DNA of 64,000 nt from Amphiscolops sp. MND2022 (Eukaryota). Positions 3,996 through 30,604 of this stretch are shown here, piece by piece; position 1 is the stretch's first letter, and each line of letters starts with the position of its first letter. A program made the position numbers and the translations under genes. The stretch spans positions 66,466,001-66,530,000 of the forward strand of contig OZ076409.1 of assembly GCA_964187785.1 (NCBI GenBank), read 5' to 3'. The notes under the pieces are model-generated. The model was given only the letters and a program-made list of their open reading frames with translations. It had not been told where the DNA came from and did no database searches.

Positions 3996-4072
3996 TGAAT
4001 GTTTTCTTAACTTTTTGGTTTAATGTAGTGTGTTATTAGGACACGAATTGTAGTGTTTCCAGCACTAAATTA

Positions 4073-6048: not shown

Positions 6049-6094
6049 TTAATATTTGTTTGCTTTAAATTAACGATATTGCTACCGCAACATC

Positions 6095-7875: not shown

Positions 7876-9066
7876 AGTTTTGTGAGTTTTTTGTGAATCG
7901 GTTTTGTTCACTAAAAATGCTTAATCATCCTTATTGTTTCAGTCTTTTCATCGTTAGTTTGACTTTTAGACTTCCTAGTCACGACTCCCTTACGGAGAGC
8001 CTGTTGAAATCATTTTTGTTCAACATTCGTATTTCCGGTTTAGTTAAAGAAATGGCGGCAAAATAAAAGTCTAGTTGAAGTTCTACCGCAGAAGGCAGGC
8101 CGGCATGAACAAGAAATCAGCGCGTAGACAGTAGGAAATCACATTTCGCGGCAAACGAATGACAAGCAGGAAAGTGATTCCAATAACTTTACGAAAAAAA
8201 GTAAAAGAACACCTTCCAAAACTATATCACAACACTTTGCAAAGGCAGCTATTTTCCTTGTCTACAGCACAACTTTTCAAAACATTCCTAGCAAGACGGA
8301 AAGTGAGCGGAGCAGAGTGATCCTAACACTGTAATTTTTCCATTATTCCGTAACGATTCCGTGTGTTTTAGGATTAGATATAGCGGACTAAACTGTACTT
8401 GGTTTTACAATTCGCTCCGTAGCTGCTCCGTACGTATTAAGATTGGTTATAGTTGAAAGGCTGTAGGCCGAGATGTAGAGGAGCGCTTAGGTGTTCATTT
8501 TCTTTCTCTCAGTTGAATGGTGTTGCTATGTTAACACTCTTATTAAGCTAAGCTCGAGTCTTGTTGAATTGAGCTCAAAAAATTTGGCCGAGGAACGACG
8601 CTATTGGTCCGTAAGATTAGAAATTGCCAACAAGTCTCGTCTAAACGGTGTCCATTACGTTGTTAATACTTATCTAGATTACGTACTTGTAATCTCAATA
8701 GGTTTTGACAGCTACTTCAACAACTGTTGTGCCATTTCTACTGTGTTTTTGTATTTTCCCTTTTTAGAGTTGACAATGTCATCCGTTAGAATCGCGGATT
8801 CAAATATTGATCTCCGTTTTTGTTTTTCAGGGTGGAAAAGAATTAACCTTACTTCGTTTATGTTTCTTTTCAATTGTTTGGATTGTTATGGAAAGCACTC
8901 CGGATTGGGAGCGGAATTACAATCTTCAGACGTGAAATAATGAACCGGAAGTTTTAAATTGTCAGAAATCACTTTTTGAATATTTACGTAGCAGTTGCGT
9001 TTGTTTAAAAAATCTTCCGCCTTACTTTTTGTGCTGTAGCTTAGGAAGAACCAGGTAAGATATTTA

Positions 9067-11389
9067 CTTTTCAAAAGCTGTGTTTGCCGTGGCCAAGTCC
9101 AGTGGCGAATTTGTGTTTGCCTTCATGACAAGTATAGCATCGACCGGGAGCGGGTCGTGACAGATAATAAGACCCTTCCAAAAGTTTGCTCCCAGGGGAA
9201 CTTTAGAGTATTCGTTGTTCTAAATAGCATCAAACAAAGCCTGCAATAAGATTTATCGAAATTGACTGCCTCTGTTCCGTTGCATAAAATGCCAAAATAG
9301 TCCACAACCTTGCTCTTTTTTGAAGTTGGAATTACTATGCGGTACAGAGTATTATCAGTCAAGGATCTGAAAAATAGAAAAGATGAGGGAAAAATGAATG
9401 AGCACGAAGTTCACATAAAGGTAAAGAAAAGAATGAAGTAACAAAATCCGTTCATTAGGTGAAATCCGTTCCGAACCGTTAGTCAACATCGAGTTACCTA
9501 TCTGGGCTGTAGAGGAGCGAGTGTGTCTTTTCAATCAAATTTGCTGTTTGATTAGTTTGAGTTGACGTTAGTAATTGTTCACGCAGGCGTACGCGGGTAT
9601 ACATCGGTGTGAATGTCGTGGAGGTCAAACAAGTCGGTGGTGCACACCTCTACTTTCTAGAAGTACGAATATATATGCCATTTTCGTTTATGGACGATGA
9701 GTTAGGCACCTAAGGCCAATGAATCGCGAAATGCTTTTTTTTGACAATACAAAGAATCTTGGAAACCCAAACCGATAACTTGAATCTGCTAACAAATGTT
9801 GCAAGTACTTGATTTTTAGTCAACGCTTTTTGTGGAAAAACGCAGACTATAGTGGTGACTTTTCTTTTTTAGTCGGCGCTTTTCGTAGGAAAACGAAGAC
9901 AACAGTAGTGACTTTTCTTTTTTTAAGATCAACGAAGTGACAGATTTTATAAGCTTTAGGAGCTGGCTTCCACTAATTGCATAGAGACTACTGGCACTTG
10001 TTACTACTACTGCCACTTTTCAAAAGCTGTGTTTGCCGTGGCCAAGTCCAGTGGCGACTTTGTGTTTGCCTTCATGACAAGATAGCACCGACCGGGAGCG
10101 GGTCGTGACAGATAGTAGGACCCTTCCAAAAGTTTGCTCGCAGAGGAATTTTAGAGTATTCGTTGTTCTAAATTGCAACAAAGCAAAGCCTGCAATAAGA
10201 TTTATCGAAATTGACTGCCTCTGTTCCGTTGCATAAAGTGCCAAAAAAGTCAACAACCCTGCTCTTTTTTGAAGTTGGAATTATTATGCGGTGCAGAGTA
10301 TTATCAGTCATGGATCTGAAAAATAGAAAAGATGAGGGAAAAAAAGGTCACGAAGTTCACAAAAAGGTAAAGAAGAGAATGAAGTAACAAAATCCGTTCA
10401 TTAGGTAAAATCAGTTCCGAACCATTAGTTCCGAACCAACATCAAGTTACCTATCTGTGCTGTAGAGTAGCGAGTGTGTTTTTTTCAATCAAATTTGCTG
10501 CTGGATTAGTATAAGTTGACGTTAGTAATTGTTCACGCCGGCGTACGCGGGTATACATCGGTGTGGATGGCGTGGAGGTCAAACAAGTCGGTTTTGCACA
10601 CCTCTACCCTCTAGAAGTACGAGTGTATATGCCATTTTTGTTTATGGACGATGAGCTAGGCACCTAAGGCCAATGAATCGCGAAATGCATTTACTTTTGA
10701 CAATACAAAGAATCTTGGAAACCCAAACCGATAACTTGAATCTGCTAACAAATGTTGCAAGTACTTGATTTTTAGTCAACGCTTTTCGTGGAACAACGCA
10801 GACTATAGTGGTGACTTTTCTTTTTTAGTCGGCGCTTTTCGTAGAAAAACGCAGACAACAGTAGTGATTTTTCTTTTTTCTTTTTTAAGACCAACGAAGT
10901 GACAGATTTTATAAGCTTTAGGAGCTGGCTTCCACTAATTGCATAGAGACTACTGGCACTTGTTACTACTACTGCCACTTTTCAAAAGCTGTGTTTGCCG
11001 TGGCCAAGTCCAGTGGCGACTTTGTGTTTGCCTTCATGACAAGATAGCACCGACCGGGAGTGGGTCGTGACAGATAGTAAAACCCTTCCAAAAGTTTGCT
11101 CGCAGAGGAAATTTAGAGTATTCGTTGTTCTAAATTGCAACAAAGCAAAGCCTGCAATAAGATTTATCGAAATTGACTGCCTCTGTTCCGTTGCATAAAG
11201 TGCCAAAATAGTCAACAACCTTGCTCTTTTTTGAAGTTGGAATTATTATGCGGTGCAGAGTATTATCAGTCATGGATCTGAAAAATAGAAAAGATGAGGG
11301 AAAAAAGGAATGGTCACGAAGTTCACATAAAGGTAAAGAAGAGAATGAAGTAACAAAATCCGTTCATTAGGTAAAATCAGTTCCGAACC
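9067..11389 (+). repeat. ~960-bp tandem repeat: units 1 and 2 and first part of unit 3
   Basis: Units start CTTTTCAAAAGCTGTGTTTGCC at 9067, 10016 and 10978; unit 3 is interrupted by the Gypsy insertion. Confidence 0.93.
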
Positions 11390-13557
11390 TGTCGAGCCCC
11401 ACTGTGTGGGCCGGCTTTGAAGAACTTTGCGATGACGAAGGTAAGTTATTTTCGTCACTTTTACTAATAACTGCCATTAATAAGTTCTTCAGTTGACTAA
11501 ACTCGCTTTGTAACTCGTTTATCTTCTTCTCATAGTTTTCCCTTATTTCAGACAACTGGGACGAGATATCTGAAGCTTCGTTGTTGTCAGAGTCATTGGC
11601 GGACGACTGAGCCATGTCTGGATCTATTGGAGAGGAGGTTTCTGACGAGGAATTTATAACTCTACCGCTTCTAAGTTCGGTGCCTTGATCTGGATTCATG
11701 TAATCGAGAGAAAAGAATTATGAGAAGACTGAATTATCTGAGATGTTGTTTCGATGTATTTTACTGATTTAAGTGGTTATTCGATCTCAAAATTCACTAA
11801 TCTGAACTGAGATGTTTTAGGAAAATGAAGTCGTAACGAGCAAGTAAGCAGTTAGGTAAGAAGAAGGAAATTAGCAAGTTAGGAAAAGTTCATCCGATTT
11901 TCATCGCAGTCGTAGATGTACCAAGAAATTACTCAAATTCAGTTCTGTACCTTCTGAAGATGAAATAGAGATGTGTTTTAATGGCTTTCACGTGTTAAAA
12001 TATCCAACCGGTCGGTAGCTTGTCTCAATTTGGGTTCTCTTGTAATCGCTAATGGCGGTCCAAATTACAGCAGTTCACGTGTCTTTTCGGTTGGTAAGAC
12101 GCTAAATCTCTTACCAACCTTCTCTCATTGGCTGTTACCAGCTGGTGTTAAAATGGTAAGTCACGTGACCAGTGTTGTGAACTGCCGCAAGGTGGCTACG
12201 CATCATGGTACATCTACATATGTTAATGGTGTTTAGTCATCAATTTACAATGTCGCAATTGCCTGCACGTAGCATCATGGTTTCTACAACAACTAAAATG
12301 AGCTCAAATCATTCAATAACGCACTAATTTTAAGTCAATCTAAGGTAAAGCACAATCCGGGATGGGAAAACGATGTTTTCCGCTGACTCTAGCGCCAAAA
12401 CCAATGATTTAAAAATTGAAGATGGAAAAGCGATGAACTTGTAAGAATATTTGCTGATTTTCAAGTCTAGTTTAGCTCTGGATGAAAATGCGATGAATGG
12501 TGGTCTTTCTCGCTCGAAAATCAACACAATTCAAACTGACGATGATAAAAGGATGAACTCCACGTATAATTTGCCAATTTCCAGCACAGATTAAACTGAC
12601 GATGAATTCGGGATGAATCCAGTCGATAAATGCCAATTCTAGTACAGGTGAATTTTGGCGATGGGTTTAAGATGAACTTGTCAGTTAAAACAGCAAATAC
12701 CAAAGCAATATGAACTGGCGATGAGTTTAGGATGAACTCATCCTCCAAAATGGTTAATTTTTAGCACGGACGAAATCAAGATGAATTAAGGATGGGTTTA
12801 CTAAACAAATCAGATAACCAGCACTTTCACTCTTTTTTAGGATGGATTAAGGATGTACTTTCTCATTTCACTTCTGTACTAGTGAACACGATGAGTAAAG
12901 GATAGGTTACTGTTCAGGAGTTTCTAAGTGAGATAATCGCGATGAATTAAAGATGAGTTTTGCTAAAATAAGTCCCATAAAATCCGCTGATGGATAATTG
13001 ATGAAAATTAGTTTAAAGTCCTATGTAAAGTTCACTCGCAATTTTTGAGGATGGGGTTGCGATGAACTTTAGTTAAAAGCACCGTTGAATCCGCTGATGG
13101 ATTCCAAGTGAAATTTCTAATCAGGTCAAAGTCATCACCAAATTCGACGATGAATTTGTGATGAATTTAGTGGAATTTGTCACAACTACATACTCTGAGG
13201 CGGGGAGTTAGTAGAAGTTATACTTTCCATTACTTTCAATATCTCTCGGTCCAGTCTGACCGGAAAACTTCTCTCCCTTGTCGTGACAAACCAATATTTA
13301 TGAAATATAGCACTTTTTCAAGGCCATTTTCTGGCAAGATCATTTATGCGGACATCGGAACTAGAGCGCTCAGTATTAAGTAAATATATATAACTCACAC
13401 TCAAGGGGGGAAGGGATTAAAGTACAAGTAACGTAGGGTTGCTCACAACCATGGCCTTTATTATATGACATCATATTGCCCATATCTAAGTACATAGGAC
13501 ATAATATTTACATTACAGATATTTAGTAGATTATATTTCCATCATGCTGGCATGACA
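11390..13557 (-). repeat. 3' LTR of the Gypsy element
   Basis: Near-identical to 28403-30599; preceded on the minus strand by purine-rich GGGGAG (13558-13563). Confidence 0.95.
12361..13163 (+). promoter_or_regulatory. Phased GATG-N7-GATG motif array in the LTR (second copy at 29380-30205)
   Basis: Motif at 12361, 12421, 12481, 12541, 12601, 12660, 12720, 12780, 12841, 12941, 12989, 13050 and 13149, with divergent spacers. The array is seen directly; a regulatory role is inferred. Confidence 0.7.
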
Positions 13558-14699
13558 CTCCCCGGGGTGGGATTTGGATTGAGAATGCAGGGGCCAAATG
13601 TGCAGAGGATGGTTGTCTCGGCGTTGGCTTCGACTGCTTCCTTCGTTTAGTTGGGGAGAAAATGACCTTCGTTAGTTCTGAATTGGCATGTCCTTCGTTT
13701 ATTCTGTCCTATGCAAACCTTCTCTGAGAAGAGGACTTTCGGCAATCGTCATGTCTGGTTTCAATCTGGGTGATTTCGGTTAAATTTTCTCGACGCGGCA
13801 ACTCTAGTTCTTGGTCCATCGAATGTCCGCTGACCTGCATTTTATTGGTTGTCATGCTTTTGATGGGAGTTTCGGCTGGTTATTTTCGGTAGAAGTTGAT
13901 TTCTTCGGAGAAAAGTTTCCCTCCAAAACGCCTACACTGAATAAACAATTCGACTAGCTTCATTGACAAATTGGCAGCGAGTCGGAGATGAATGAACGAT
14001 GAATTGTTTTTACGGCGAGACATCGATGTTGATTTAGCAGACGAATGGCGTCGTTGCTCTACTATCAGCTTCCGCGATAAGAAAGAGATGACTCGTTGTC
14101 ATAGTAACCGTTGAAGCTACTTCCGCTGTCTGAAATCTCAGCGATCAGAAAGAGATGGCCTGTTGCCATAGCAATCACTGCTAAATCTGATTGGCTGAAA
14201 ACTGAATTTTCTGAACTTAAAGAAATCCAACCGATTGTCAACAAATATTCTCATCCTTGAATCATCTTCCGTCAAGTCGGTTTTGAAAATCGCCACGATT
14301 TCCTTTGCGCGTTTCCGCTCAACTTCATCGGTATTGATCTGAGACTGGCAGCTGTCATCAAAATCAAATACTTGAAGTTTTTGTAGTCAAATTCTGGGGG
14401 GTGATTCATTTTCAGAGAAAATTGTCAAGTTGGTTGAACTAGGAAGAAAAGTGTAGGCAGTCATTGAAATCGGAGAGTTTTTCATCGATTTTCCATCTTC
14501 TGAATTCCAAGTATTTGGTTTGTCCTGGCATTCAAGCTGTATCCGCGCTCTTTGAAATTTTCCGCGAATTTGTATCTCGCAATCATGGTTGATCAGGCCA
14601 TTTAATTACTGATCAAATTCTTGTCCTCAGATTCTTCGATTTCGTTCCTTTCCGCACTCTCTTCCGTTCCTTTTCAGATTGTTTTGCAAAACTACAGTG

Positions 14700-16169
14700 A
14701 TGTCTGACATCCAATTTGTTCATTCTCTTCCAGAGACCGAAGCTACAGAAAGTAAGTTTACCATTTTCTTTTCTTTCACAAACGGGTCAGGGAACAATTA
14801 GGTGCTGAAAACGCGTCTTGGCTTTTTAGCGGACTCGGTTCAATCTGTCGGCGTCGTCTCTGAGCTGACTACTTTGCAGACCGTGCCGCCTCAAGAGGCT
14901 CCCGAAGCTCAAGCAGCAGCTCCTGAACCTCAGTTTCAACTTGATCACCCGTTTGGTCAGGCTCCCAATGTCCCGTATCTTCCGCAGTGTAAGTTCTGTC
15001 CCTCCAGATCTTCAATTCAGTCCACAATCTCTTCATTCCTCATCTCTGGTCCCTTCAGATGTTGACTCTTTCCGTTTGATGTTTAGATCATTATCCTTGG
15101 CATGCTTCCCTCGGTAGCATCACCTTCGAGTGGTATGATCGCCACATGCGGGACATGCTACGAGATAGCATCCAGCAGTATAGTGAGTTGACTCCTTTTC
15201 ACATTTCCGTCTGTACTAAGGTATCGTCCGGACACTCCGATGTAATTCCGATGTAAACATCTCATCTGCATGTAGTGCCCTTCACGGTCGATTACCTATA
15301 AAATTCATTTTTGAAGATGAATCTGGGATGCGTCATGGACATTCACTGTCCTTCGTGGCTAATCCGTTTGCGAATTCCATTTTTGAGGGTGAAATTTTGG
15401 TGACTTCGTTTCCCGTTTTCTTTCTTCGCGCGGTGTACGCGCACTCTCTTCATCATCTGTCGTCGTCTGATTTTTTGTTTTTCTTCTTTCAGGTCCGACT
15501 CCTATCCACGCCCCAAGGCCTCTCCCTATCACGTACTCCGTGGGTATAGGAACGAGCAACTTTGGTGCATCACAGGTTGATGCTGCTACTCAAGGAGGGC
15601 CTTCTTCCCTGGAGATGTCCTCGTTCCTCCAGGACTTGTCTCTGGGTGCGATCAGCTCCCCAGTGGCACGTGCCCCAGTGTCGGTGCTCTCGCCGAGCTT
15701 TCAGCGATTTCTGGACCGCGAATCAGCAATTGAAAGTCCTTCTCCTCCTGTTCGCGTCACCGTAGAGGCAGGAGTCAGTGCCGTCGTCACTCCTGTGGAT
15801 GTGGCAGTCGATGCCTGCGTGGCTGTTGTTGACCAGTCCGTTCAGGCCGTTGTGGAAACTGGCGAGACTTCCACGGATTATGATCCTCCTGTGGAACCTC
15901 TTTCAGCTGCTCCCTCTCCGCCAGCTAGTAGTGTCCCTGAAACTGTGGAGGCTGACGTTGGGCAGTCTGACGTGCCATCAACCGACAGCACTGATACCCT
16001 TCTAGAAGCAGTCGAGGATGTCCCTGCTGGTGATCCTCTGTCCGCTGAGCTGCTCCAGAAGGTGCTGTTCCCGGTCTGGTTCCTGTGTCTGCTGAGACGT
16101 CTCCCATGGGACCCAGTCTCGTGGACTCCGACGACGAGCCCATTGCGTCTCGCTTGCCAGGTTACCTAA
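14700..16169 (+). CDS. Antisense spliced accessory gene A in the Gypsy element (low-complexity Pro/Ser/acidic protein)
   Basis: Exons 14700-14751, 14830-14988, 15087-15182 and 15493-16169 are joined by GT(A/G)AGT...AG phase-1 introns that keep the frame. A probable frameshift near 16050 suggests it may originally have continued into gene B. Confidence 0.6.
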
Positions 16170-16757
16170 ACAGCTTTAACCCTGTGAAGTATCTGATCGG
16201 TAGCTTTTTTTCATTTCTTCTTTCATTTCCACTTTCACCAGTGTTTTTCACGTCTTTCTTCTTTTCCATCTATTTTCCATCGTTTTTCTATTTTTCTATA
16301 TGATTTTCTGCAGTTTTTCATTTTCCATCACTTTCTCATCGCCAAAAGTCTTGAGTATAGCGTTTTTTCTTTTCTGATCATTTTTTATAACTTTCCATCT
16401 CTTTTACATCCTTAAATTTTCTCGTTCGGTTTTTAGTTACTCTATCGTTTTCTTTTCAGTTTACATCTCTTTTTCATCGAAAAGTTATTTTCGCTTTAAA
16501 ATATCTCAATTTTGGTTCAAAGTCGTTCTATACATCTCTTTTTCATCGTTCGGGGCTTCCGTCTTTTAAAGTTTCAATTTTCTGTCCTGGTGGCTTGCAA
16601 ACACATCTCTTTTTCATCTTTTCGTTTTTTCGTCGTTTCTCGCTTATATTTCCAATGAAAATATTATTTTACATCATGTTTTCATCACTCCGGGTGAGGT
16701 TTTTTTTGAAATGTTCGGTTGAATTTCTATTTTTCGGTATTCTAGGATGTGTAGAGG

Positions 16758-19469
16758 ATGGAGTTAACAATTTTCGTTATTCTTTTGATATCAGGAAGGA
16801 AAATTCTCAAGTCAGCGTGGTTTGACCACGCTTATTGTGGATTGGCGCTCGGTTTCCCGAAGGATCACCTGACGCGCGATTCGTACGCTAGATGTCTACT
16901 CTGCAGGCAAGATGTCAAGATCGGTAGCCGCGGTATAACAACCTTCTTTGAACACTGCCGGGGAGTCAGACACCACCGGCTGGACTGTCTGACGCGATTG
17001 CGAAGGGGCCTACCGCTGCGCAGACGAGATGGGACACTGATGTCCCAAGCCGATTCAGACGTATGTGGTGCCGCATTAATTGGTGAGTCAGTGCCGTTGA
17101 TTGAGACCTGTCCAGATGTGACTGTTCTGGAGGCACTGCAGATCGAGGCGAGTGATGGTTCAGTGTGGGGCACAAGGCGAGTCTCAGAGGATGTCGACCA
17201 CATTGACAGTTTTCGGTTGTTCGTGTGTCTAGTGATTGATGCGGTCTATCGGGACTGTAATTTCGCAAGTGTGGGACATCTTTGGGACCTGATGGTTGCC
17301 TCCAATTCGCAGCATGCTATCATGTTTGGCGCGACTTGTCGAGAATCCGACGTTCTGGTTATTATGAATCTTTTCCGGATGCATGAAATAATTACATGTT
17401 GCATGTATTGTTATTTGTATGGTACATGTGAAACTTCCGAAAATTTTGGAGTATTTGTATGAAAAATTCCTTTTTTTTATTTTTTTTTAAAAAACTCCAA
17501 GGTTGGGGTGTGTGTTAAGTGAGTGGTGAGTAGGTAACTATATGAGAAAGTAAGACGATGATTGTAGGATGAATGTATGGTCTTGTTTTAGAGCGTTGTT
17601 CTTGTTGGGCTCTGGCCGTTTGTGATTGGTTCGTGGTCCGAAACAGAATACAGCAGTTTCGGTGTCACATTAGTGGCGGACAGAGTGGTGGGCACTCTGA
17701 ATGTATGTACCTCGGAAGGGCCTGCGAACTATGTGGTCTTTTCATTTGTTTATGGACAAGAGTGGGAGCAGCGAGTGGTCTCGTGGGCTGTCAATATGGT
17801 GTGTTGCGCTGTGGGGCAATTGGCACCTGTTGGCCTCAATTGTCGACTGTTGTCTGGGCTGGAAAGGGTGTTAGTCAGCCGCTCTGGACCAAGGACAGTC
17901 TCACTTGTGTCGTTAAAACTTACCGAGCTAAACAAGCGTCTGGTGGATGCGAGCATTCGTGTGATGGGCGGGAAAGATGTACATACGATATTGAACCATT
18001 TGCAATCAAGGCTAAAAGAATTCGTCCGGGACCCAATCTTTTTAGCTTGTCCAAAGCTCTTGCAGGTAACTATCTGCTATTTTTCGATTATTTTTCACTG
18101 ATGTTGATGTGTCAATTTTTGGGGGTGATGCTTTTCGTGGTTGTATCGTGTGTAATTTGGGAATTTTTTATTTTTATAAATTCTTGTTTGTTATAGTCCG
18201 TGTTAGACGGAGAGGTAACCCTCTGGGACGTACCGGACGTGTTGGCTGAGTTGTCCGAGAATTGGGCAGAGGTCTCGAATCTGTTGAGAGTGCCTAGTGG
18301 ATCCGGCATCATTGAGTCTTTGGACTTTGTGCTGTGTGGGGATCGTGCTATCCCTTTCCGTTTGCAGGCCTTAGCTAGTGTCTTTCGTGCACGTATGTAT
18401 GTTTTTTGTTTTCTTGGTCCATGTCGTTTCGTTATTTACAGTGTCTTAATTTAATAAAAGATATTTGGTTCGGGAATCGAGTAGAGAGCGTGTGACTTGA
18501 CTATGGTTTTTTTTGCATTAATTTTTGTTGTTTTCAGTCGTCGATTCGTATCGCTGGAGCTTCAGCAGTTGTCCATTGAGGAGTTTTCATTGGGCGTACG
18601 AGAGTGCGTGTTTTGTGCACGCAATCTTAGTCAAGCTGATAGACGACGATGACCTGCCTAGTGTGACTGAGGTGAGGGCTTGCTTGGAAGTGGACGTGGA
18701 CAATTTGACTGTGTCAGATGCCAAGTTGCGAGCCATGAGGGATGAATTCGGTCCCTACTTAGGGCAAGTTGCAGAAGCTGCCGTAATTGATGAACACTTG
18801 GCGATGGTGCAAAGCTTCATGTTTGTAGTGGTTGAAGAAATTCTAGCTGCTTCCGGGATGAAAGAAGAGGTGACGTATCATTTGAGTGTGGGTTGTCCTG
18901 CTCTTTTGTTGCGTGGTGAAATTGACGTTTTACGAAATGAAGCTGAACAATTTACTGGATTGCTCATGGATCTGAGGAGGATAGGACTCGCTGAGAAGAG
19001 ACGAATGGATGGGAGCTTCGTCTCATTCGTGACCAACTTCAGGCAGAATGCAGTTGATTTGTCCGTAGGCAGTGCAAGTTCAGCAGTGGACATTTTGCGG
19101 GCATGTGAGAGTTCATCGTGTCAACGCTTCTTCCGTTTCTTGATGTGTCTGGGTGAGACTCCTGTATTCCCAGCAGGTATCAGTTGCGTCAGCGTGGGAG
19201 GGTTGAGCAGTGATGTTACGACAAGTGTGTGCTCAAGTATTCTAAGTTATTTGAGGACGCATTCCATCAGACAGTTCGAAACTGTGAGTGGGCCGTTACT
19301 TGAGGAGGTTACGGAGTCAATTGGTCATTTCACAGCTTTAGCAGATTTGACAGAAGAGATGCTGTGGGATGATGTAGGAGTGGTCGCTGATGAAGAATAC
19401 CGTCAGTCGTTGTACGATGCGATCGGATTTACAGCTGCTGGAGAGCGCGCAGCTAGCCCTGAGGTTTAG
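16758..19469 (+). CDS. Antisense spliced accessory gene B in the Gypsy element: N-terminal BED/C2H2-like zinc finger plus unknown domain (~730 aa)
   Basis: Exons 16758-17357, 17592-18065, 18197-18392 and 18538-19469 are joined by GT-AG introns (phases 0, 0, 1) that link the four ORF-track frames exactly; ARCLLCRQDVKIGSRGITTFFEHCRGVRH zinc-finger motif. Confidence 0.75.
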
Positions 19470-22342
19470 AATTGACTTTCTGTTTATTATTATTTTTTGA
19501 AACTGTTTGTATCTTTCATGTTATTTTATATTACTGTATGTTATAGTATTGTATCTAGCAAATGGGTGACCAATTTGTATGTCGCCTTAAGTGACATGAG
19601 AGAGGGAAAAAAACGCGCTGCGTCGGAAAAATCGGCAGTGTACTATGTACAAGTTAAATATTTGGCACCCGAAATTGTTTTTCTCTTGAGTTAATAGTGA
19701 GTGGGAATGCAGGTAGAATTCAGTTAGGTTCACACTAGTTAAGTTCATTTGGTAGGTTGCGTCAATCGGCGGCTCTGTTTTTCATTGGTCATCGCTTCCC
19801 TATCATTTTTCAGTTGATAGAAATTGTAAGAGACTTTTGTCACGTTGTTCATCGTTATTACATCTCGTGTAAGTGTAGTTAGATTATCAGTGTCTCGTTG
19901 TGATTTTTCATCTCATTTTCATCACGTTTTCCTCAGTCGGCCGAGCGACGTCGCGAAAACTGTTTCCTCATCTTTTTTACATCGTTCGTTATATGTGAAT
20001 CAGTGCATGTTGTTACATGTGGTTTTTCTACATAGATCATCGTTTTTTCATCTGTCGTTTTCATTTTAACATTTTGGCTAGTTTTTTGCTGTATTTCATC
20101 GTTTTTGCATCGCAAGTTTTGGCTTGTCGGATTTTGCTCATTTTGCTGCATAGTTCATCTTCTTTTCATCGTAATTTTGGAAAATATTTATCTTGCGTGT
20201 TTTTCGTGTTTATTTTACTATAACGTAATCGAGAGTTGCATTTTTCATGGTAGATGAGGGTATTTTATCAATTTTGCGGTAATTTGGGAGTGTTTTCTTC
20301 ATGTATTTTAGTGTCATATGGTGTTGATCGTTTGTTAGGTTGTCGAAATTGCATGAAATTTAGTGTACATGTGTTATACTCATTTTCGTTGCGTTTCGGA
20401 TTTGTCAAAGTTTGAACATCATTGCATGAATCATTTTTTCGGACTCTTGTGACCGCCAATAGCGTGGCAGTCGAAGAGATGTTCACTCAGCAATGGTATT
20501 GGTACCCCGTAGGCGTGCAAGGTTCTTGAGGTACCAATCTAGAGCTGGGTGAGTGGAGCTGCTCCGCTCCTTTCAGATGAATGAATTCTCTCAGTTTTGA
20601 GCTATATATAGACTTCATGTTAATTTTTACGTGTCGGTTGTTTGTCATCAGACGTCGAAATGGTTTTGTCCATTTGACGTTTAATCTGATCAATCAAGGT
20701 GATTGACATCTATGGCTTTGCATGTTTCGAATTATTAAATTTTGTGATATTGTGTGGTTTCATGTTCGCGTGTTTTCATAATGTATTCCTTTAAATGGGT
20801 TGCCCCATTATCGACATGTTGTTATATGTTCGGTGTTAGTTTCAAGTATTTTAATTTGGTGTTTTTATTTTCGTTCATTTGGACAGGGCTTTGTCGTCAC
20901 AAAGCCCCTACAAAACTAACTGAGAATCCACTAGCCGCTGGATAACCAACGCAGCAAGCTTCATCCGAATATGGTTGTGAGCTCCCCGCCTCAACTAACC
21001 AGCACTCTTTTCAGAGAAATGCCAGCCAGCACGAAGGAATGTTTTGGCTTTTCGATGGGGGTGTTTTGCTTGTTATGAACTGATGTTTACTGGGGGGCTC
21101 ACTCCTTTATTCGTTTTGTGGTTGTTTTGTCAGTTCGTATATTTTGCATGTAAGTTAGTAGGCTTCATGTATTTTCGATTGTTTGTTTCATTTTCATTTT
21201 TCTAGGATTGTATGTCTTTGGTTTGAATTGCATATATTATCTCGTTCATTTTTAAACGGTACATGTATGTTTCCGTGTGTTGCTCATTTGAATTGCATTT
21301 AGTTTGGAGTTGTCAATTTCTTTCGTGACGTCATTGATTTGGCAGGTCTTTGAACCTTACATGTATTGTTCATTTTCGTTTTTGTGAGGCATAATTCTAT
21401 TTGCGTGATTCGAAATTAGTTCGGCGGTTTTTTGTCGTTTCGTGGAGTTACATGTTGTCTGAGAATTAGCTGATTTATTGTGATTTTATGTGGATGGTGT
21501 TTCCCATCACAAGGAGGTTATCGTAAGTCATTTAATATTTTCGAATTTCCATTTAGACTAAATTCATCGTTTTGACATCCTCCAGCGAAGCTAGAGTATC
21601 GTGTCAGGCTAACGATAAATTCGGTCACGATTTGATGGTAGTTTCCATCACAAATTCATCTCATTAATTGTTTTCATGTAAGTTCTGAATAATTGAATCG
21701 AGTTCATCGGTATTTCATCCTCTAGCCGAGCTAGAGTATTATGAAAGCATGAACGTGAGTGCGTTCGCATTCTGATGGCATTTTCCATCTCAAATGCATC
21801 GCTAGTAAATATTGTATGTTGATTGGTCGAATTTTTGACTGAGTTCATCACTTTTTCATCTCTCGTGTGACTGAGATAAATTTTCATGTGATTTCATCCT
21901 TTTTTCATCTCAAAATTTTATGTGTTGTTTTTTCTGGGTTTTTTGGTCGTTTTTCATCCGTTTTACATCGTGTTTTGTTTTTATGCGTTTTTCATGTGAT
22001 TTTTAGTAACTTTTCATCCATTTTACAACTTCATGTTCATTTTAAATTGAAATTGCATGTAATTGATTCGTTTTTGTGAATTGTTCAACTTTAACACATC
22101 GTGTGTTTTGAAATGTTGTTTTACTTGGCTAAATCGTTACGTTTACTTTGTTGGTCTTTCTCAGAGAGTTTCTGGCTGATGTAATCTCATGAATAAGGAA
22201 GTCAGGATATTTTTTCGGTGTAGGGTTCTCGCGTAACCTGTACCTACTCTGATTGTTTCTAGACGGTCTAGAACTCATCCTATCCTCATCTTCAGTTTGC
22301 GTGTTTGTCTGTTGTGACTGATTTTCGTGTTGTTCGTCTCTC

Positions 22343-23515
22343 TTATCCTACTCTCATCGCGGGGGGGGGCGGTAGAATAATTTCCTCTTGCGTTCCAAAT
22401 CTAACTGTAGGTGGTCTAAAGTTGTTGTGGTCAGTTTCTACTTGCTGATATTCTATTCTCGTGGTTATTTCTGGTGGAATTACTTGTGGACTGTGTCGTT
22501 CTTGTACCTGCGGAATTATTTCTTCTGAAGGCTCTTCTTCGACTAAGTCTTGATCTAGATTGTCATTCTCATTCTGATCTACTTCGTCGGTCGTCGGAAA
22601 ATTCGAGTCGAAAATGTCCGTGTCTTCAACCCTTTCAGCGACTGGGTAGAGATGTTTGGACACGTTGATGTCATCAATCGGACATTCCGGTTTGAACAAC
22701 CTCAGTCGCATTCTGTGTACGCACTGAGTCTGGTGTGTGCCTACTTTGCGGATGATGTAGTTGCTATCGGATAGCACTTTCATCACCTTGTACGGTCCTT
22801 TCCAATGGAAAGTTTTAAACTCTTCTTTGCTTGTCTGAGAGTCGTACTTAGGATCTAGTAGGAACACAAATTCATTCACCTTCAGTGGTTGTGCTCGTGC
22901 TTTTCTATCATAGTACATTTCGTACTTGTGATAGGCGGAAATGATGTTATCTAGATTGTCTCTGATGAAGTTCATTTTGTCTAGAATTTCGTTCACGTCC
23001 TTGCACTTTGTTTCAGCCGGCTTGTTTGCGTTTCGGAGTTGCAGATCTAGTGGGTTGTATGGTGTTCTTCCGTGGAAAATTACAGTTGGTGAACATTTCA
23101 GTGAATCATGATACGTTGTGTTATGGGCCATGATTGCTATGTCGACATAGCGGTCCCATTGTGGTCTGTCTGCGTTTACACTAATTTTAAGGATCTTTTT
23201 CAGTTTCGCGTGCGTTCTCTCCACCATGCCTATTGTCTGTGCGTGCTTTATCGTGGCATGGGAGATGTGAATATCAGCCGCTTTCGCGATTTCAGACAGA
23301 AGTTCAGCCGTAAACGCCGTGCCCTTGTCCGTCAGAATGTGCTTGGGCACATACGCGTGTTTCGTGAAGATCGACAGTAATCCTCTGACTACGGAATGTG
23401 TATCAGGTCTCTTCAGCGGAACGGCGAACAGGTAGCGCGAAAAAACGTCAACAGCCGTCAGAATGTGTGTAAAACCGTTCGACGCCGGGAGTGGACCAAC
23501 GATGTCTATTTCCAA
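22343..23515 (-). pseudogene. Gypsy integrase core and C-terminus (frameshifted from pol)
   Basis: IDIVGPLP, VDVFSRY, TDKGTAF, GMVERTH (DDE); WKGPYKV (GPY/F); tail ...RYRLRENP continues to about 22130. Confidence 0.92.
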
Positions 23516-26500
23516 CAGGTCTTCTGGTCCGTCGCACGGGTCGTAGATTTTTGTAACGGTGGACGTAGTTGCGTTTCTTTTACACTTTTAGATTTCATGA
23601 AGTTTTCACAACCGTCAAGGACTTTTTGAACTTTACAGGCTAAGTTAGGAGAGTAATATCTTTTACGAAGTTCGTACACCATTTTCTTTAAACCAGGGTG
23701 TCCTTGTACCGGGCTGTTATTTAGAGTCCTAATTATTTTCAAAATACAGTCTTCAGGAACAACTAACTGCTTGTGAGACTCCAGTCCCGTGTGATCAAAA
23801 AACTGTCTGTACAAGACACCGTTTACAACTTGTAGGCGTTTTCGATTTTTGTGCAACTTTTGAAAAAACTGATCTTGCATATTAACTGGGTGTTGCAAAA
23901 TTTCAGTACCTTCTAAAAATCTAATCATTTTTTGAATAACCCAGTTATTTTTCTGGACCTGAATTAGATCGATCCCCTCAGCGGGGCTAACCTGACTCAT
24001 TACCGGGTGTGATAATGATACTTTACGGATGAACTGCGAGAGTTGAATCGGCTCGTTCACGTCTGTGAGGCGGTACGTCAGATGGTTGTCAGTCGCGAAG
24101 TCATCTGAGGCCGCTGTTCTCTCACAGTTGGTGAACTTCATCCCTTTCCCATCGTCATGAGCCACGTCAGTGCCAGTTGCCAATTTCATCTGTTTGACAT
24201 CCTTCTGGCGTTTGCATCTGAGTGGTTCGCTCGTGGGAAAGTAATCAGGCTCGTCTTCCTCCTGTTTTGGTGTACGGGAGGCGATGTCGATCTCGATTCT
24301 GTGAATTGGAATAGTATCAGTCAATTTTAAATGTACACGGTCTTCAGGTCTAATCTCAAGCCGAGATAAGTAACCCGCTGCGGGATTTTCAACTCCTGGA
24401 ACATGTGCTAATAAAAAATTGAACTGAAGGGTTTGATCGCAAAAGTTCCAAAGTGAAGGCGGGATATGCTTCGCCTGAAAAAATCTAGTCAAGGCCTTAT
24501 TGTCAGTCATAACAATGATGGGTTTTTTTGCACCCCACAAAATGTGGCCAAATTCATCGAAGGCAAAGTGCATAGCTAAAAACTCTTTGGCATACATTGT
24601 TAGAGACATCTGGCCGCCCTGAAATTTCTTGGAGCCAAATGCAACAGGGGCGTATGTTTGTTTGACTGACGGGTCAGCATAATCCTCAATTAACAAAACA
24701 TAGCCGGCAGCGTGTTCGCTGGCGTCACACATGATTACCAATTGTTTATCAGGTAATGGCAATTCCAGAAACACTTTTGTTGCTTTTAACAAACTTTCAT
24801 TGATTTCAAAAATAGCATCTTTATGTTGTTGGTTCAGCTTGAAAGGGACGTCCTTCTTGATCAACTCCTGTAAACAACAAGTTTTATCAGCTAGGCGGGG
24901 AATATAAGACCTGTAAAAGTATACAAAACCAAGATAACGTTGCAACGCTTTCACTGAATTGGGGGGTTTCAACTTGGTTAAGTAATCTGTTACGCGTTTT
25001 TCAATGGGAGCAATACCGGTGCTAGAAATGGTTTTTCCCAAGTACTCAATTTGTTTTTGTCCAAATTCACATTTACTCATGCTAAGTTTAAGACCAGCTT
25101 TGTTCAACTGCTGAAAAATAAGTTCAAGGTTATTGATCAGTTCGTCAGGGGTGTGTGCTGCAATTCCAATGTCATCAACATATTGAGCACACCGGTCCGC
25201 TTTGACCAAGGGGTCCAAATTCTCACGGACTACACTTGTGAATGCTGACAAAGAACGATTAAGACCCTGTGCTAGACGTAAAAAGGCAAAAGTTCTAGAA
25301 CCAAAATTAAACGATAACAGTTGGACAGACTGCTCATCGGCCATTGGGATGCAATGGTAGGCCTGGGAACAATCAAGTTTACAGAAATACTTTTTCCCGG
25401 CCATGTGTTGGGCAGCGTCAGCAATTGTTGTTACGGGATGGTTGTGTTCACCGTAATCGTTTTTGATCAAGTGGTTTATTCTTCTCAAGTCAACTAAAAT
25501 CCTCAATTTACCATTAGGTTTACGTTGAGCAAATATCGGAGATGAGTATTTGCTGTGAGGCAAAGTAGTTATGATCCCGTACTCTTGCATTAAAGCTAAC
25601 TCTACGAGCAAATCGTCCTTCAAATTTGTCGGAGTAGGGAGACTTTGTGAATAAACAGGTTCTTCATGTTGGGGTGTTAGCTTAACTTTAAAATCAGTGT
25701 TCATGCCAATATCAAAACGATGTCTAGCAAAAATGGAGTTGTACTTTACCAGCAACTCCTCTACCTGTAACCGTTGAGACGGAGTAAGAAGCGAGTCGTC
25801 CCAGTTGAAGTTCTTCAGGAAGTTCATCCGTTGTTCATCGGATTGGGACGGGTCAAGCTTCTCGAGCTCTCGCAGTGCCAGAATCTCATCATAGATTCGT
25901 CGCTCAATTGCGTTGAGTTTGTCTGGCTCACTGCACGTCTCGGGAGTTGGGTACCACTTGGTTGACTTCATTTCAGGGTTCACGAACAGTTGGTTGATCA
26001 CCGCTTTCGCCTCATCTGGGTACTTGGTGATCAGGTTCAAGTGTTCGACTGGCATAGGTGTGATGTTCGCCGCCTGATGTGGTGTCGGTATGCGAAAGTG
26101 TGCCAGAGTGGTGTTGGCATCAAGTGTGAACGTGTGGTTGTTCGGGTTGGTGACCTGGATTGTCGTATTGCCCTCGTCTAGGTCAACCAAAGCTGGGGAA
26201 ACAAGCAAACACGTCTTTCGCATGAATCCAGGTGAGCCCTCAACTGTACCAGTTGTAAGTGAGATGTCCGCGTCACTGTGGACCTGTATCATCACTTGAT
26301 GGAGAGGAGGGATCACTGTTCTAGTACTGGAACACAAATCAATTAAACCAGTTTTGAATCTGTTGTTCTTTTGCTGTCTAACTTGCATGGACATCATGTG
26401 ATTAGGGAAGTGGACAAGGTGGTTTTTTATGTCTAAGTTGACTGAGTACTTTTCAAAGAATGACAATCCAATTAAAATTGTGCCCATTGTTGGAAGGATT

Positions 26501-27210
26501 AGGAACGTTTCTTCAAAGACTTTTCCAGCAACGTAAAATCTAAGTGAGACTTGCTTACGCACTGGGACTAAGTTCCCGTTTGCTATTTGAATTTTGAAAT
26601 TCGGAGGGGGAAGTTCTTGAAGGATGGCTTCTGGATGAGCCGTTGTTATTTTTCGCAATTCTGCTTCAGACATTGCGCTTTGAATTGCGCCTGTGTCTAA
26701 CAGTGCATGGTTTTCGTATTTATCAAACTGAAGAGGGACGTACAGCATTTTATCTTTCTTGTTTAAATGTAAAGTGGGACTAAGAACGTGAATTTCTGTT
26801 TTAGTTGCATGTTTGTTATCTTTTGAAATGTTAATACTACTATATTTTGCATGTTTTTTAATACTAAGCCGTTTGTCGATTGTTGAGTATGAAGTCGAGT
26901 CGTCGTCTAGATGGTTGGTGTCCATCTCTTTGGCATCGTCCACCTGCCTCATGGTGTTTTGTTGCCAGTTCATCGTTTGTTCATCGTTGATTTCAGCGAG
27001 TGGAGAAAAGCGGCTGCCGTTGCGTTGACGTGCATTTCCCATCGCTTTTTCATCGTTGGAAAGTCTTCGCTGATAGACGTCGTCAGCTATTGGTCGTTTG
27101 TCCAGTGAAGGCTGCCATTTCTTCATTGGACGGTTGTGTGTAGTCGGTTGAGTCGAAAGTCGTTTGTCGCGCGTTGTATTTCTAGCGGGCGGAAATCGTG
27201 GCTGAATCAA
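23506..27210 (-). CDS. pol: Gypsy Pol: protease, RT, RNase H, integrase zinc-finger region
   Basis: ALLDTGA; LRILVDLRRIN; LDCSQAYH; YVDDI; MCDASEHAAG; MTDNKAL; GHPG...C..(C). Confidence 0.95.
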   Translation of the reverse strand: MIQPRFPPARNTTRDKRLSTQPTTHNRPMKKWQPSLDKRPIADDVYQRRLSNDEKAMGNARQRNGSRFSPLAEINDEQTMNWQQNTMRQVDDAKEMDTNHLDDDSTSYSTIDKRLSIKKHAKYSSINISKDNKHATKTEIHVLSPTLHLNKKDKMLYVPLQFDKYENHALLDTGAIQSAMSEAELRKITTAHPEAILQELPPPNFKIQIANGNLVPVRKQVSLRFYVAGKVFEETFLILPTMGTILIGLSFFEKYSVNLDIKNHLVHFPNHMMSMQVRQQKNNRFKTGLIDLCSSTRTVIPPLHQVMIQVHSDADISLTTGTVEGSPGFMRKTCLLVSPALVDLDEGNTTIQVTNPNNHTFTLDANTTLAHFRIPTPHQAANITPMPVEHLNLITKYPDEAKAVINQLFVNPEMKSTKWYPTPETCSEPDKLNAIERRIYDEILALRELEKLDPSQSDEQRMNFLKNFNWDDSLLTPSQRLQVEELLVKYNSIFARHRFDIGMNTDFKVKLTPQHEEPVYSQSLPTPTNLKDDLLVELALMQEYGIITTLPHSKYSSPIFAQRKPNGKLRILVDLRRINHLIKNDYGEHNHPVTTIADAAQHMAGKKYFCKLDCSQAYHCIPMADEQSVQLLSFNFGSRTFAFLRLAQGLNRSLSAFTSVVRENLDPLVKADRCAQYVDDIGIAAHTPDELINNLELIFQQLNKAGLKLSMSKCEFGQKQIEYLGKTISSTGIAPIEKRVTDYLTKLKPPNSVKALQRYLGFVYFYRSYIPRLADKTCCLQELIKKDVPFKLNQQHKDAIFEINESLLKATKVFLELPLPDKQLVIMCDASEHAAGYVLLIEDYADPSVKQTYAPVAFGSKKFQGGQMSLTMYAKEFLAMHFAFDEFGHILWGAKKPIIVMTDNKALTRFFQAKHIPPSLWNFCDQTLQFNFLLAHVPGVENPAAGYLSRLEIRPEDRVHLKLTDTIPIHRIEIDIASRTPKQEEDEPDYFPTSEPLRCKRQKDVKQMKLATGTDVAHDDGKGMKFTNCERTAASDDFATDNHLTYRLTDVNEPIQLSQFIRKVSLSHPVMSQVSPAEGIDLIQVQKNNWVIQKMIRFLEGTEILQHPVNMQDQFFQKLHKNRKRLQVVNGVLYRQFFDHTGLESHKQLVVPEDCILKIIRTLNNSPVQGHPGLKKMVYELRKRYYSPNLACKVQKVLDGCENFMKSKSVKETQLRPPLQKSTTRATDQKTCWK

Positions 27211-28712
27211 AAACCCTGGTTAATGTCTTCATCAGAGTAGCTTAGTTGTTCGTCGTCTTCAGTAATTGCTTGCATTGGATTCATCGGCTTTTGCTGTCGT
27301 TTTAAATCTTGTCGTCTAGCCTTGTTGTCGTCCTGTGAATTCGTTGTGTATGGAATCTTTCCATATGCAGAGCTGCTTTCCTTGGGAATGCGTCGTCTGC
27401 AGTCTCTTGCAGAGTGGCCGGTGTATCCACAAATCAGACAAACCAGCTTGGGATTGTACTTCGGTTTGTCTGGGTCGGTTGCTTTCTTCATCGGAATTGC
27501 ATCTTCTTTCTTAATGCCGTTTGCTTCGTCACGTTGTCGGGCGCGACATTCCGTTTTGCGGTGACCTGTCTTTCCGCAGTAGAAGCATTGTCCCTCAAAT
27601 CGTTTTCGTTCTGTCGGTTGCGTTGTCGTCGTTGTTGCTGGTTTAATCGTTGTGTTGGTCGTTGGGACCGAGGAGGTGACCGCGTTAAATGGTTGAATTG
27701 CCGTAGGTGGCGCAACGTACTGCTGGTACTGGTACTTTCTCATCAAGTATGTCTTGATTTCTTCTGGTGAGCTCTCCTCCTTATTGGCCATCGTAAGTTC
27801 TTGTTGTATTTCGACTGGGAGTTTACCGAACAAGAACATTTTGATGATTTTATCCGCTTCTTCCCCAAATGCTTGTTTCGCAGTCTTTTTCAAGTTTTTG
27901 AGGAAGTCGCTGAATGTTTCTGTGGTGGGATCGTAACGGGCTTGATCCCATTTGTAGCGAGCTACTTCTGTAAGGTCCTCTTTCGCGAATTTTTTCCTGA
28001 AGAGGTCGAGTACATCTTTCAGCGTTGTTAGTGGCGTTATCTGGATGGATTGCCAGTACTCTATTGCATCATCTCTCAAAAGGCTTTGAAAGAAGTGGAG
28101 TTTGTTCTCTTCGGTGATTTTGTTGGCGAGCGGGCTAAGGTGGTTGAGGAGAAGGTGCTCGAATTCCACGAATTTGTCTTTTTGGCATCTGAAATTTGGG
28201 ACGTGTGTCTGTAGTAGTTTCGTGTTGGTGGTGGTGCTTTTGATTCGTTGGGGGATCGTCTCGATTGCATTGAGTAGTCGTTCCTCATTGCTTCTAGGAG
28301 TTGATTCACCTTCTTCGTCCGAGTCGTCTTCTTGGTATGTCCTGAAGTTTGTGAAGCTGGATGTCGGGCGGGTGGAGCGGGTTTCTGTAACTCCTGTCAC
28401 CATGTCGAGCCCCACTGTGTGGGCCGGCTTTGAAGAACTTTGCGATGACGAAGGTAAGTTATTTTCGTCACTTTTACTAATAACTGCCATTAATAAGTTC
28501 TTCAGTTGACTAAACTCGCTTTGTAACTCGTTTATCTTCTTCTCATAGTTTTCCCTTATTTCAGACAACTGGGACGAGATATCTGAAGCTTCGTTGTTGT
28601 CAGAAACATTGGCGGACGACTGAGCCATGTCTGGATCTATTGGAGAGGATGTTTCTGACGAGGAATTTATAACTCTACCGCTTCTAAGTTCGGTGCCTTG
28701 ATCTGGATTCAT
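27207..28712 (-). CDS. gag: Gypsy Gag with two CCHC zinc knuckles; ORF starts inside the 5' LTR
   Basis: CFYCGKTGHRKTEC and CLICGYTGHSARDC; ATG at 28712 lies within LTR 28403-30599. Confidence 0.93.
   Translation of the reverse strand: MNPDQGTELRSGRVINSSSETSSPIDPDMAQSSANVSDNNEASDISSQLSEIRENYEKKINELQSEFSQLKNLLMAVISKSDENNLPSSSQSSSKPAHTVGLDMVTGVTETRSTRPTSSFTNFRTYQEDDSDEEGESTPRSNEERLLNAIETIPQRIKSTTTNTKLLQTHVPNFRCQKDKFVEFEHLLLNHLSPLANKITEENKLHFFQSLLRDDAIEYWQSIQITPLTTLKDVLDLFRKKFAKEDLTEVARYKWDQARYDPTTETFSDFLKNLKKTAKQAFGEEADKIIKMFLFGKLPVEIQQELTMANKEESSPEEIKTYLMRKYQYQQYVAPPTAIQPFNAVTSSVPTTNTTIKPATTTTTQPTERKRFEGQCFYCGKTGHRKTECRARQRDEANGIKKEDAIPMKKATDPDKPKYNPKLVCLICGYTGHSARDCRRRIPKESSSAYGKIPYTTNSQDDNKARRQDLKRQQKPMNPMQAITEDDEQLSYSDEDINQGF
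27210..27216 (-). other. -1 ribosomal frameshift slippery heptamer G GGT TTT at the gag-pol junction
   Basis: CAG GGT TTT TGA ends gag; the -1 frame (GGG TTT TTG ATT CAG) is the pol frame; matches X XXY YYZ. Confidence 0.75.
28391..28402 (-). other. Primer-binding site (tRNA-Leu-like) of the Gypsy element
   Basis: TGGTGACAGGAG immediately follows the 5' LTR end; one mismatch to the tRNA-Leu complement TGGTGTCAGGAG. Confidence 0.6.
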
Positions 28713-30599
28713 GTAATCGAGAGAAAAGAATTATGAGTGAAGACTGAATTATCTGAGATGTTGTTTCGATGTATTTTACTGATTTAAGTGGTCATTCGAT
28801 CTCAAAATTCACTAATCTGAACTGAGATGTTTTAGGAAAATGAAGTCGTAACGAGCAAGTAAGCAGTTAGGTAAGAAGAAGGAAATTAGCAAGGTAGTTA
28901 GGAAAAGTTCATCCGATTTTCATCGCAGTCGTAGATGTACCACGAAATTACTCAAATTCAGTTCTGTACCTTCTGAAGATGAAATAGAGATGTGTTTTAA
29001 TGACTTTCACGTGTTAAAATATCCAACCGGTCGGTAGCTTGTCTCAATTTGGGTTCTCTTGTAATCGCTAATGGCGGTCCAAATTACAGCAGTTCACGTG
29101 TCTTTTCGGTTGGTAAGACGCTAAATCTCTTACCAACCTTCTCTCATTGGCCGTTACCAGCTGGTGTTAAAATGGTAGGTCACGTGACCAGTGTTGTGAA
29201 CTGCCGCAAGGTGGCTACGCATCATGGTACATCTACATATGTTAATGGTGTTTAGTCATCAATTTACAATGTCGCAATTGCCTGCACGTAGCATCATGGT
29301 TTCTACAACAACTAAAATGAGCTCAAATCATTCAATAACGCACTAATTTTAAGTCAATCTAAGGTAAAGCACAATCCGGGATGGGAAAACGATGTTTTCC
29401 GCTGACTCTAGCGCCAAAACCAATGATTTAAAAATTGAAGATGGAAAAGCGATGAACTTGTAAGAATATTTGCTGATTTTCAAGTCTAGTTTAGCTCTGG
29501 ATGAAAATGCGATGAATGGTGGTCTTTCTCGCTCGAAAATCAACACAATTCAAACTGACGATGATAAAAGGATGAACTCCACGTATAATTTGCCAATTTC
29601 CAGCACAGATTAAACTGACGATGAATTCGGGATGAATCCAGTCGATAAATGCCAATTCTAGTACAGGTGAATTTTGGCGATGGGTTTAAGATGAACTTGT
29701 CAGTTAAAACAGCAAATACCAAAGCAATATGAACTGGCGATGAGTTTAGGATGAACTCATCCACCAAAATGGTTAATTTTCAGCACGGACGAAATCAAGA
29801 TGAATTAGGGATGGGTTTACTAAACAAATCAGATAACCAGCACTTTCACTCTTTTTTAGGATGGATTAAGGATGTACTTTCTCATTTCACTTCTGTACTA
29901 GTGAACACGATGAGTAAAGGATGGGTTAGTGTTCTTTAGAAATGAGAAGCACATTTCAGGAGTTTCTAAGTGAGATAATCGCGATGAATTAAAGTTGAGT
30001 TTTGCTAAAATAAGTCCCATAAAATCCGCTGATGGATAATTGATGAAAATTAGTTTAAAGTCCTATGTAAAGTTCACTCGCAACTTTTGAGGATGGGGTT
30101 GCGATGAACTTTAGTTAAAAGCACCGTTGAATCCGCTGATGGATTCCAAGTGAAATTTCTAATCAGGTCAAAGTCATCACCAAATTCGACGATGAATTTG
30201 TGATGAATTTAGTGGAATTTGTCACAACTACATACTCTGAGGCGGGGAGTTAGTAGAAGTTATACTTTCCATTACTTTCAATATCTCTCGGTCCAGTCTG
30301 ACCGGAAAACTTCTCTCCCTTGTCATGACAAACCAATATTTCTGAAATATAGCACTTTTTCAAGGCCATTTTCTGGCAAGATCATTTATGCGGACATCGG
30401 AACTAGAGCGCTCAGTATTAAGTAAATATATATAACTCACACTCAAGGGGGGAAGGGATTAAAGTACAAGTAACGTAGGGTTGCTCACAACCATGGCCCT
30501 TATTATATGACATCATATTGCCCATATCTAAGTACATAGGACATAATATTTACATTACAGATATTTAGTAGATTATATTTCCATCATGCTGGCATGACA
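28403..30599 (-). repeat. 5' LTR of the Gypsy element
   Basis: Direct repeat of 11390-13557 with few substitutions and ~23 extra bp near 29930-29955. Confidence 0.95.
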
Positions 30600-30604
30600 G
30601 AACC

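Follow-up and report, generated by a model that had tools for sequence, protein, structure and literature searches.

Comparison of copies indicates that an LTR retrotransposon in the genome of Amphiscolops sp. MND2022 carries, antisense to its own gag and pol and between the integrase and the 3′ LTR, a conserved accessory gene with multiple introns; the gene is almost certainly genuine, and its splicing is predicted from the way in which diverged copies agree. The stretch analysed, here called the window, comprises 64,000 nucleotides (assembly GCA_964187785.1, contig OZ076409.1, positions 66,466,001 to 66,530,000 of the forward strand), and the coordinates below are counted from its first letter. 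The place and the orientation of the gene had been proposed in a preliminary description of this DNA, and both have stood.

The element that encloses the gene is a Ty3/gypsy LTR retrotransposon of 19.2 kb on the minus strand of the window, recognised as such by its TG...CA LTRs, its target site duplication, its gag and the order protease, reverse transcriptase, RNase H and integrase. The LTRs are 97.9% identical to each other, with the duplication GAACC on both sides: the 3′ LTR (11390..13558, minus strand) is preceded by it at 11385-11389, and the 5′ LTR (28403..30600, minus strand) is followed by it, on the plus strand, at 30601-30605. A PBS-like TGG stretch lies within the 5′ LTR, also on the minus strand. 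The gag (27207..28730, minus strand) has two CCHC knuckles and begins within the 5′ LTR, so that its first ~100 codons are also present in the 3′ LTR. It is followed by pol (22343..27219, minus strand), which encodes protease, a weak dUTPase-like stretch, reverse transcriptase, RNase H and integrase, here in two frames; the dUTPase-like match (E 0.036) falls between protease and reverse transcriptase, at residues ~294-374 of the frame 23509-27219, and the pol and integrase frames, which differ in the window copy at ~23500-23590, seem to be continuous in sister copies. Beyond pol there is a non-coding spacer (19470..22342) with 14 copies of a motif that is written CATC-N7-CATC on the plus strand and GATG-N7-GATG on the other. 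The distance from the integrase to the 3′ LTR amounts to almost 9 kb, and it is this stretch that the antisense gene occupies.

The element lies within a tandem array of ~950 bp units (6093-11389 and 30601-39176), nested in turn in an array of ~480 bp units that also contains a copia element (LTRs 32208-32434 and 37231-37457, 97% identical). Further along the window there is a BEL/Pao element (51089-59226) with an ORF of 1613 aa, LTRs that are 99% identical and a minus-strand frame of 292 aa in those LTRs, preceded by a reverse transcriptase frame of 793 aa (48155-50536). There are also a minus-strand frame with a PAN domain (41059-41730), possibly a host exon; four MITE-like arms of 140-180 nt in inverted pairs (45470-47192 and 59889-60066); and, at 1528-4019 on the minus strand, another BEL-type gag in fragments (DUF1759) with a frame of 456 aa that has no Pfam match.

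The comparison of copies supports a gene of eight coding exons, all on the plus strand, that would encode ~1050 aa from an ATG at 14700. The preliminary description had proposed four exons, separated by three GT-AG introns, that join into 733 aa with no internal stop. These exons and introns were confirmed, although the model was incomplete, since they are four of the eight coding exons and the ATG then taken as the start (16758) is intronic. The predicted exon 1 (14678..14751) follows a conserved 5′-UTR acceptor (14676-77) and contributes 52 coding nucleotides; exon 2 (14830..14988) has 159 nt; exon 3 (15087..15182), with 96 nt in families A and B of the element, encodes an aromatic and acidic peptide common to both; and exon 4 (15493..16160) is of low complexity, rich in Ser, Pro and acidic residues, with a length divisible by three in 15 of 20 sister copies. 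After a long phase-1 intron (16161..16794) that holds eight copies of the motif and the ATG 16758, exon 5 (16795..17357), formerly the first exon, carries a BED-like CxxC...HxxxxxH finger and a helical region. Exon 6 (17592..18065), for which a helix, a three-strand sheet and a second helix are predicted, is 12 nt shorter in the window copy than in most sisters; exon 7 (18197..18392) has 196 nt, and exon 8 (18538..19469), predicted to be all-helical, ends at the stop TAG 19467-69.

The splice sites were compared in 20 diverged copies spanning the identity range. At the three introns first described, the donor GT is present in 20/20 copies in each case and the acceptor AG in 19/20, 18/20 and 20/20; the last two exons each keep their length in 19/20, while the lengths of the introns drift, and the GC content of the four exons is 48-54% vs 30-32% in the three introns. 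The upstream four exons are bounded by splice sites, each in phase 1, that at most one of 21 sequences lacks. The acceptor at 16793-94, placed 36 bases past the ATG 16758, is conserved in 19 of 20 sisters, and the exon that it opens has 563 nt in 11 of 15 family-A copies; with ATG 16758 as the start, the distance to the first donor would be a multiple of three in only 6/20 copies. An ORF at 15221-15492 was also considered as an exon and was rejected, as it contains stops in most copies. The eight-exon frame is fully open in three of the 15 sampled family-A copies (1049-1051 aa) and in phase in ten of them; the window copy itself is broken by a frameshift in exon 4, near 16050. In family B, with a pol identity of ~67%, the same four exons lie upstream and are joined in phase to the finger exon in 7/10 copies, and in the one copy of family C followed in detail the last introns have matching positions and phases. 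At 16161 the donor (CAG|GTTACC) is a weak one that departs from the consensus. At the start of the long intron, ~16 bases have been conserved in both A and B (16161-16180 in the window; near 8706 in loci L161-L170), and, unspliced, they would read G-x-L-N-S-F; a short isoform or an RNA element is a possible explanation for this conservation.

That the gene is cargo of the element, as had been proposed, is strongly supported, since 52 of the 54 copies fetched, which belong to three Gypsy families, lie antisense to pol or integrase (19/20 in family A, 19/20 in a mixed A/B set and 14/14 in family C), these copies having been sampled through matches to the gene itself. The pol identity among the families that carry it ranges from 57 to 97%, and family C differs from the window to the extent that the integrase is ~57% and pol up to 70% identical. 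The gene stands where an env might be expected, and the suggestion that it is not one was borne out: it runs on the strand opposite to pol, and no env family appeared in the Pfam scans. Nor is it a secondary insertion, as no inverted pair brackets the block within 16161-20400 and the gene is present in sister copies. One locus combines two families: ~5 kb downstream from a family-A copy, a family-B copy of the gene takes the place of pol (L032 952-2149, minus strand).

Selection on the protein, which the preliminary description had put forward as a check, is purifying, with a median dN/dS of 0.13 in exon 5, 0.22 in exon 6 and 0.18 in exon 8 (22, 32 and 16 unsaturated pairs, respectively); no pair exceeds 1, and the opposite-strand reading gives 0.95-1.20. 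The families that carry the gene are very abundant, with 1593-3894 first-look candidates in the genome. A search with exon 8, in which the best 128 of 1593 candidates were scored, gave identities of 60-100%, ten of the copies having a stop, and with the finger exon 150 of 2448 candidates were scored. A HMMER profile scan of 1.8 billion proteins gave 102 matches, of which 100 are short exon-sized fragments and none is a full-length transposase. The ten matches that were checked all come from ENA assemblies; two of these are only 32-45% identical to their best counterparts in the Amphiscolops genome, and because of this distance they probably come from other hosts, so that related hosts probably carry the gene as well. 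Word-index searches with exon 8 and with the exon-5 alignment found no homologue among longer proteins, a result of little weight.

The exons do not all share one history. Several elements match the window at 91-98% identity over LTR, upstream exons and integrase, but from ~16600 to ~19900 their identity to it is only 54-68%; that is, exons 5-8 have been swapped as one block between near-identical backbones, with alleles that go down to 40% identity. The left edge of the block falls within the long intron and the right edge within the spacer. In one copy the integrase has a pS of 0.000 vs 0.79 in exon 8, and in a second the integrase pS is 0.047 vs a pN of 0.38, the exon 8 protein being only 40% identical. 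Deep alleles on young backbones, together with purifying selection, indicate that diverged alleles circulate between backbones, and template switching in reverse transcription is the likely route. The swapped block coincides with the four exons first described, and may be the unit that was originally captured.

As for the protein, a disordered stretch, acidic and rich in Pro and Ser, makes up its N-terminal third; in the copy measured, the 325 aa of this stretch are rich in Ser, Pro, Val, Ala and acidic residues and have no Lys. The CxxC...HxxxxxH finger, already pointed out from the single copy, is conserved across the three families as R-C-x2-C-x2-D...R-G-x6-H-x5-H in exon 5. Its likeness to the fingers of hAT proteins held in part: zf-BED (PF02892) is matched in 7 of 25 members, all below threshold (best E 0.027), and the ten best Atlas matches of the finger that have a family all belong to the hAT clan, with scores of 0.81-0.86 that lie below the 0.9 level, which makes a BED-like finger a lead. 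The earlier idea of a catalytically dead hAT transposase fares in the same way for the finger and less well for the rest, since outside the finger a profile-profile comparison with two hAT alignments (17 ORFs of Ac-type hATs from the genome, and 30/54 Tip100-type homologues of 690-860 aa) did no better than reversed controls. These hhalign comparisons gave an alignment in register at the first strand of the hAT core (E 0.4-0.5), and the score of a stretch in register with the C-terminal dimerisation domain of hAT did not exceed that of the reversed control; that domain (PF05699) had no Pfam match, and when exon 6 is aligned across the three families no Asp of a DDE triad is invariant.

The structural searches are of a similar tenor. 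The Foldseek check that had been proposed, run with parts of the gene against PDB and viral models, returned no match at E<=0.001, and PDB sequence searches found none either. A low-confidence model of exon 6 (pLDDT 52) has a best Z of 4.8, with RNase H-like folds, including integrases, among its weak matches (integrases and actin-like folds, Z 3.6-4.7); in the VIA fold comparison the best values were Z 4.8 and 5.4, and Hermes was absent among the matches listed. No hAT match was found for exon 8 in fold or Atlas searches, and neither TRP28 (PF04195, absent at E<=1) nor any other Pfam family was matched above the cut-off; a search of the genome with DUF4371 gave no match, with the controls likewise blank. 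The family-C exon 8 (L183 4746-5720) resembles basidiomycete proteins in the Atlas (0.87-0.90), with no hAT among them, and the family-C protein has a basic C-terminal tail that resembles a nuclear localisation signal. In any case, descent of the body encoded by exons 5-8 from a hAT transposase stands at about an even chance.

If the protein has a finger, the element offers a candidate for what it reads. The motif GATG-N7-GATG occurs 69 times in the 19.2-kb element, in both orientations, vs a single time in the remaining 44.8 kb of the window, and is absent from 134.7 kb of hAT loci; only the gap of seven bases is enriched, other gap lengths giving 0-3. By family, there are 472 in 200 kb (A), 320 in 110 kb (B) and 7 in 140 kb (C). 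The copies cluster in the LTR, in the long intron and in the spacer before the integrase, with seven more within pol, and are densest in the LTR, where 13 are arrayed at ~60-bp spacing over 12361..13163 (plus strand), likely in U3. Across 11 LTRs the GATG positions are 95-99% identical vs 72-78% at other bases, GATG is kept at 0.92 in diverged LTRs (rank 1 of 55 four-mers), and GATG/CATC ranks first in the long intron (1/37) and in the spacer (1/100), although these word-conservation counts may be inflated by repeats anchoring the alignment. A second set of enriched words (TGCATG, TTACAT, CATGTA) is common to the spacers of A and C (19470-22340 in the window; L181-L194).

The finger and the motif vary together. 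The finger loop SRGI[T/S]T is common to A and B (21 of 25 rows), which also share the motif, even though their exons 6-8 are only 22-32% identical. Sub-family C1, in turn, has the loop GRGLHN and carries GACTG-N7-CAGTC in LTR and spacer, 29 times in C loci and not once in A, B or hAT loci, a count that includes near-identical copies as well as orthologous positions and corresponds to a density of ~4 sites in every 10 kb. The gene of sub-families C2 and C3 has a third loop, and no strong motif was found in their loci. The co-variation is drawn from three or four clades that are related to each other; it is circumstantial, and common descent could by itself be enough to produce it. The BED domains of Hermes read short repeated motifs through a loop and the helix before the last ligands (PMC10368747), and in our reading the finger loop here would be the counterpart of that base-contacting segment. 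GATG-N7-GATG is a probable target of the finger.

The function that we favour, by a slender preponderance, is that the finger protein binds the motif of its own element and acts as an activator or anti-silencer, by a logic like that of VANC and TnpA. A promoter within or close to the 3′ LTR would drive transcription of the gene, whose introns would likely escape removal during retrotransposition, being antisense to the packaged RNA. The product of ~1050 aa would use its BED-like finger on the GATG-N7-GATG sites arrayed over the element, presumably as a dimer or oligomer, the 11-bp repeat being about one helical turn; the disordered, acidic N-terminal third would have an activation-type role, and the bound protein, whether as an activator specific for this sequence or as an anti-silencing factor, would help to keep the element active. 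Exons 5-8 may derive from a captured, catalytically dead hAT-type transposase, for and against which the balance is roughly equal. The fuller account, in which that captured transposase became a private factor with family-specific pairs of finger and motif, and ancient alleles are traded as a cassette, is put forward more tentatively.

The same observations admit other explanations. The protein could bind the motifs to the opposite end, repressing the element or putting a brake on its copy number, or it could serve as a structural coat of the cDNA for nuclear import or integration; the spread of the motifs over the whole element, seven of them within pol, is in keeping with this, as are the basic tail of family C, similar to a nuclear localisation signal, and the nuclear or regulatory roles proposed for plant antisense ORFs (PMC7264820). 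However, the densest array lies in the LTR, at the likely promoter, and the families with the gene are very abundant (1593-3894 first-look candidates). Activation regions are, moreover, often disordered, acidic and rich in Pro and Ser, and the N-terminal third has this character, so that we regard a brake or a coat as unlikely. Or the motifs could be sites of a host transcription factor, with the protein acting otherwise, e.g., against a restriction or piRNA factor, in which case the many old alleles would reflect host conflict or allele incompatibility. Alleles saturated at synonymous sites on young backbones, as in the copy with pS 0.000 in the integrase, would suit such a conflict, and the family-A motif stays unchanged when the allele changes; yet the motif is missing from the hAT loci and occurs once in the rest of the window, the finger loop is constant across family-A alleles and differs where the motif differs, and pairs with dN/dS above 1 are lacking. 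We consider host sites, and likewise the host-conflict origin of the alleles, quite improbable.

It is also conceivable that Gag or Pol could be the binder of the motif instead of the accessory protein. A nested DNA transposon, or a host gene passively transduced, with no role for the element, could account for the BED-like finger, in a genome where hAT elements are abundant, and for the discrete edges of the block. But the place, the orientation and the intron positions are alike in three families, the protein is under purifying selection, and there are neither terminal inverted repeats nor an invariant catalytic Asp; such a passenger is largely refuted, and its probability is slight.

Antisense accessory ORFs of plant Gypsy elements are known, as are sequence-specific helpers in plant DNA transposons. 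The former are reported from Ty3/gypsy elements (TRP28 of Retand, gene23 of Grande, RIRE2, PvRetro13), and also from the fungal Boty, in the portions of two papers covered (PMC11963269; PMC7264820), and like the gene described here they are antisense, lie between pol and the 3′ LTR and are present in most copies, within a long 3′ internal region that bears repeats, with products predicted to be DNA-binding or nuclear (same sources and portions). In contrast with Retand, there is no match to TRP28 here and there are seven conserved coding introns, as predicted, the word “intron” being absent from the main text of the Retand paper (PMC11963269); the candidate cognate motif and the swapping of alleles are likewise features of the present gene that do not figure in the portions covered of either plant paper (PMC11963269; PMC7264820). 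The host, too, is probably an animal here, in agreement with the BEL/Pao element in the window, BEL/Pao being elements of animals.

At the level of logic, the closest likeness is with the helpers of plant DNA transposons. The short motifs to which VANC binds have been amplified into degenerate tandem repeats, also within its own introns (PMC5735166), and TnpA (Spm) is reported as transposase-derived (bioRxiv 10.64898/2026.08.24.746577). The present gene would resemble them in that it is accessory and contains introns, varies more than the core enzyme (PMC5735166) and is accompanied by family-specific short motifs amplified in non-coding DNA, a likeness that fails for C2 and C3. Unlike VANC (VANDAL/MULE) and TnpA, which belong to plant DNA transposons, it is carried by an LTR retrotransposon, its anti-silencing role would be ascribed by analogy, and no homology to either was detected in Pfam scans. 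The comparison with hAT, ZBED and CGGBP-type proteins is similarly mixed: common to them are the CxxC...H...H finger, with weak zf-BED matches and Atlas neighbours of the hAT clan, a predicted helix followed by three strands where the RNase H-like core would be, and a length of ~720 aa for exons 5-8, whereas no significant profile or fold match was obtained outside the finger, the DDE is not invariant, terminal inverted repeats are absent, and there is an additional disordered N-terminal third. Among animals, LTR elements of bdelloid rotifers are also Gypsy-type; they have captured ORFs other than env, and a dUTPase lies between their protease and reverse transcriptase, but the extra ORF3s described in the part covered are env, DEDDy or GDSL ORFs, with no use of “intron” and a single “antisense” that refers to small RNAs (PMC5408684). 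In a search that lay outside most subscription journals and Repbase/Dfam, no LTR element of an animal was found described with a spliced antisense gene for a finger protein.

In summary, these copies point to a gene with seven predicted introns that has been propagated by reverse transcription, probably in thousands of copies, and which repeat masking would conceal from annotation. For the plant antisense accessory ORFs, both function and origin are described as unknown in the portions covered of that literature (PMC11963269; PMC7264820), and the present system, with a protein domain, a defined candidate target in GATG-N7-GATG, a natural variant in GACTG-N7-CAGTC and many alleles, bears both on the role of such ORFs and on the way in which retrotransposons may escape silencing in animals.
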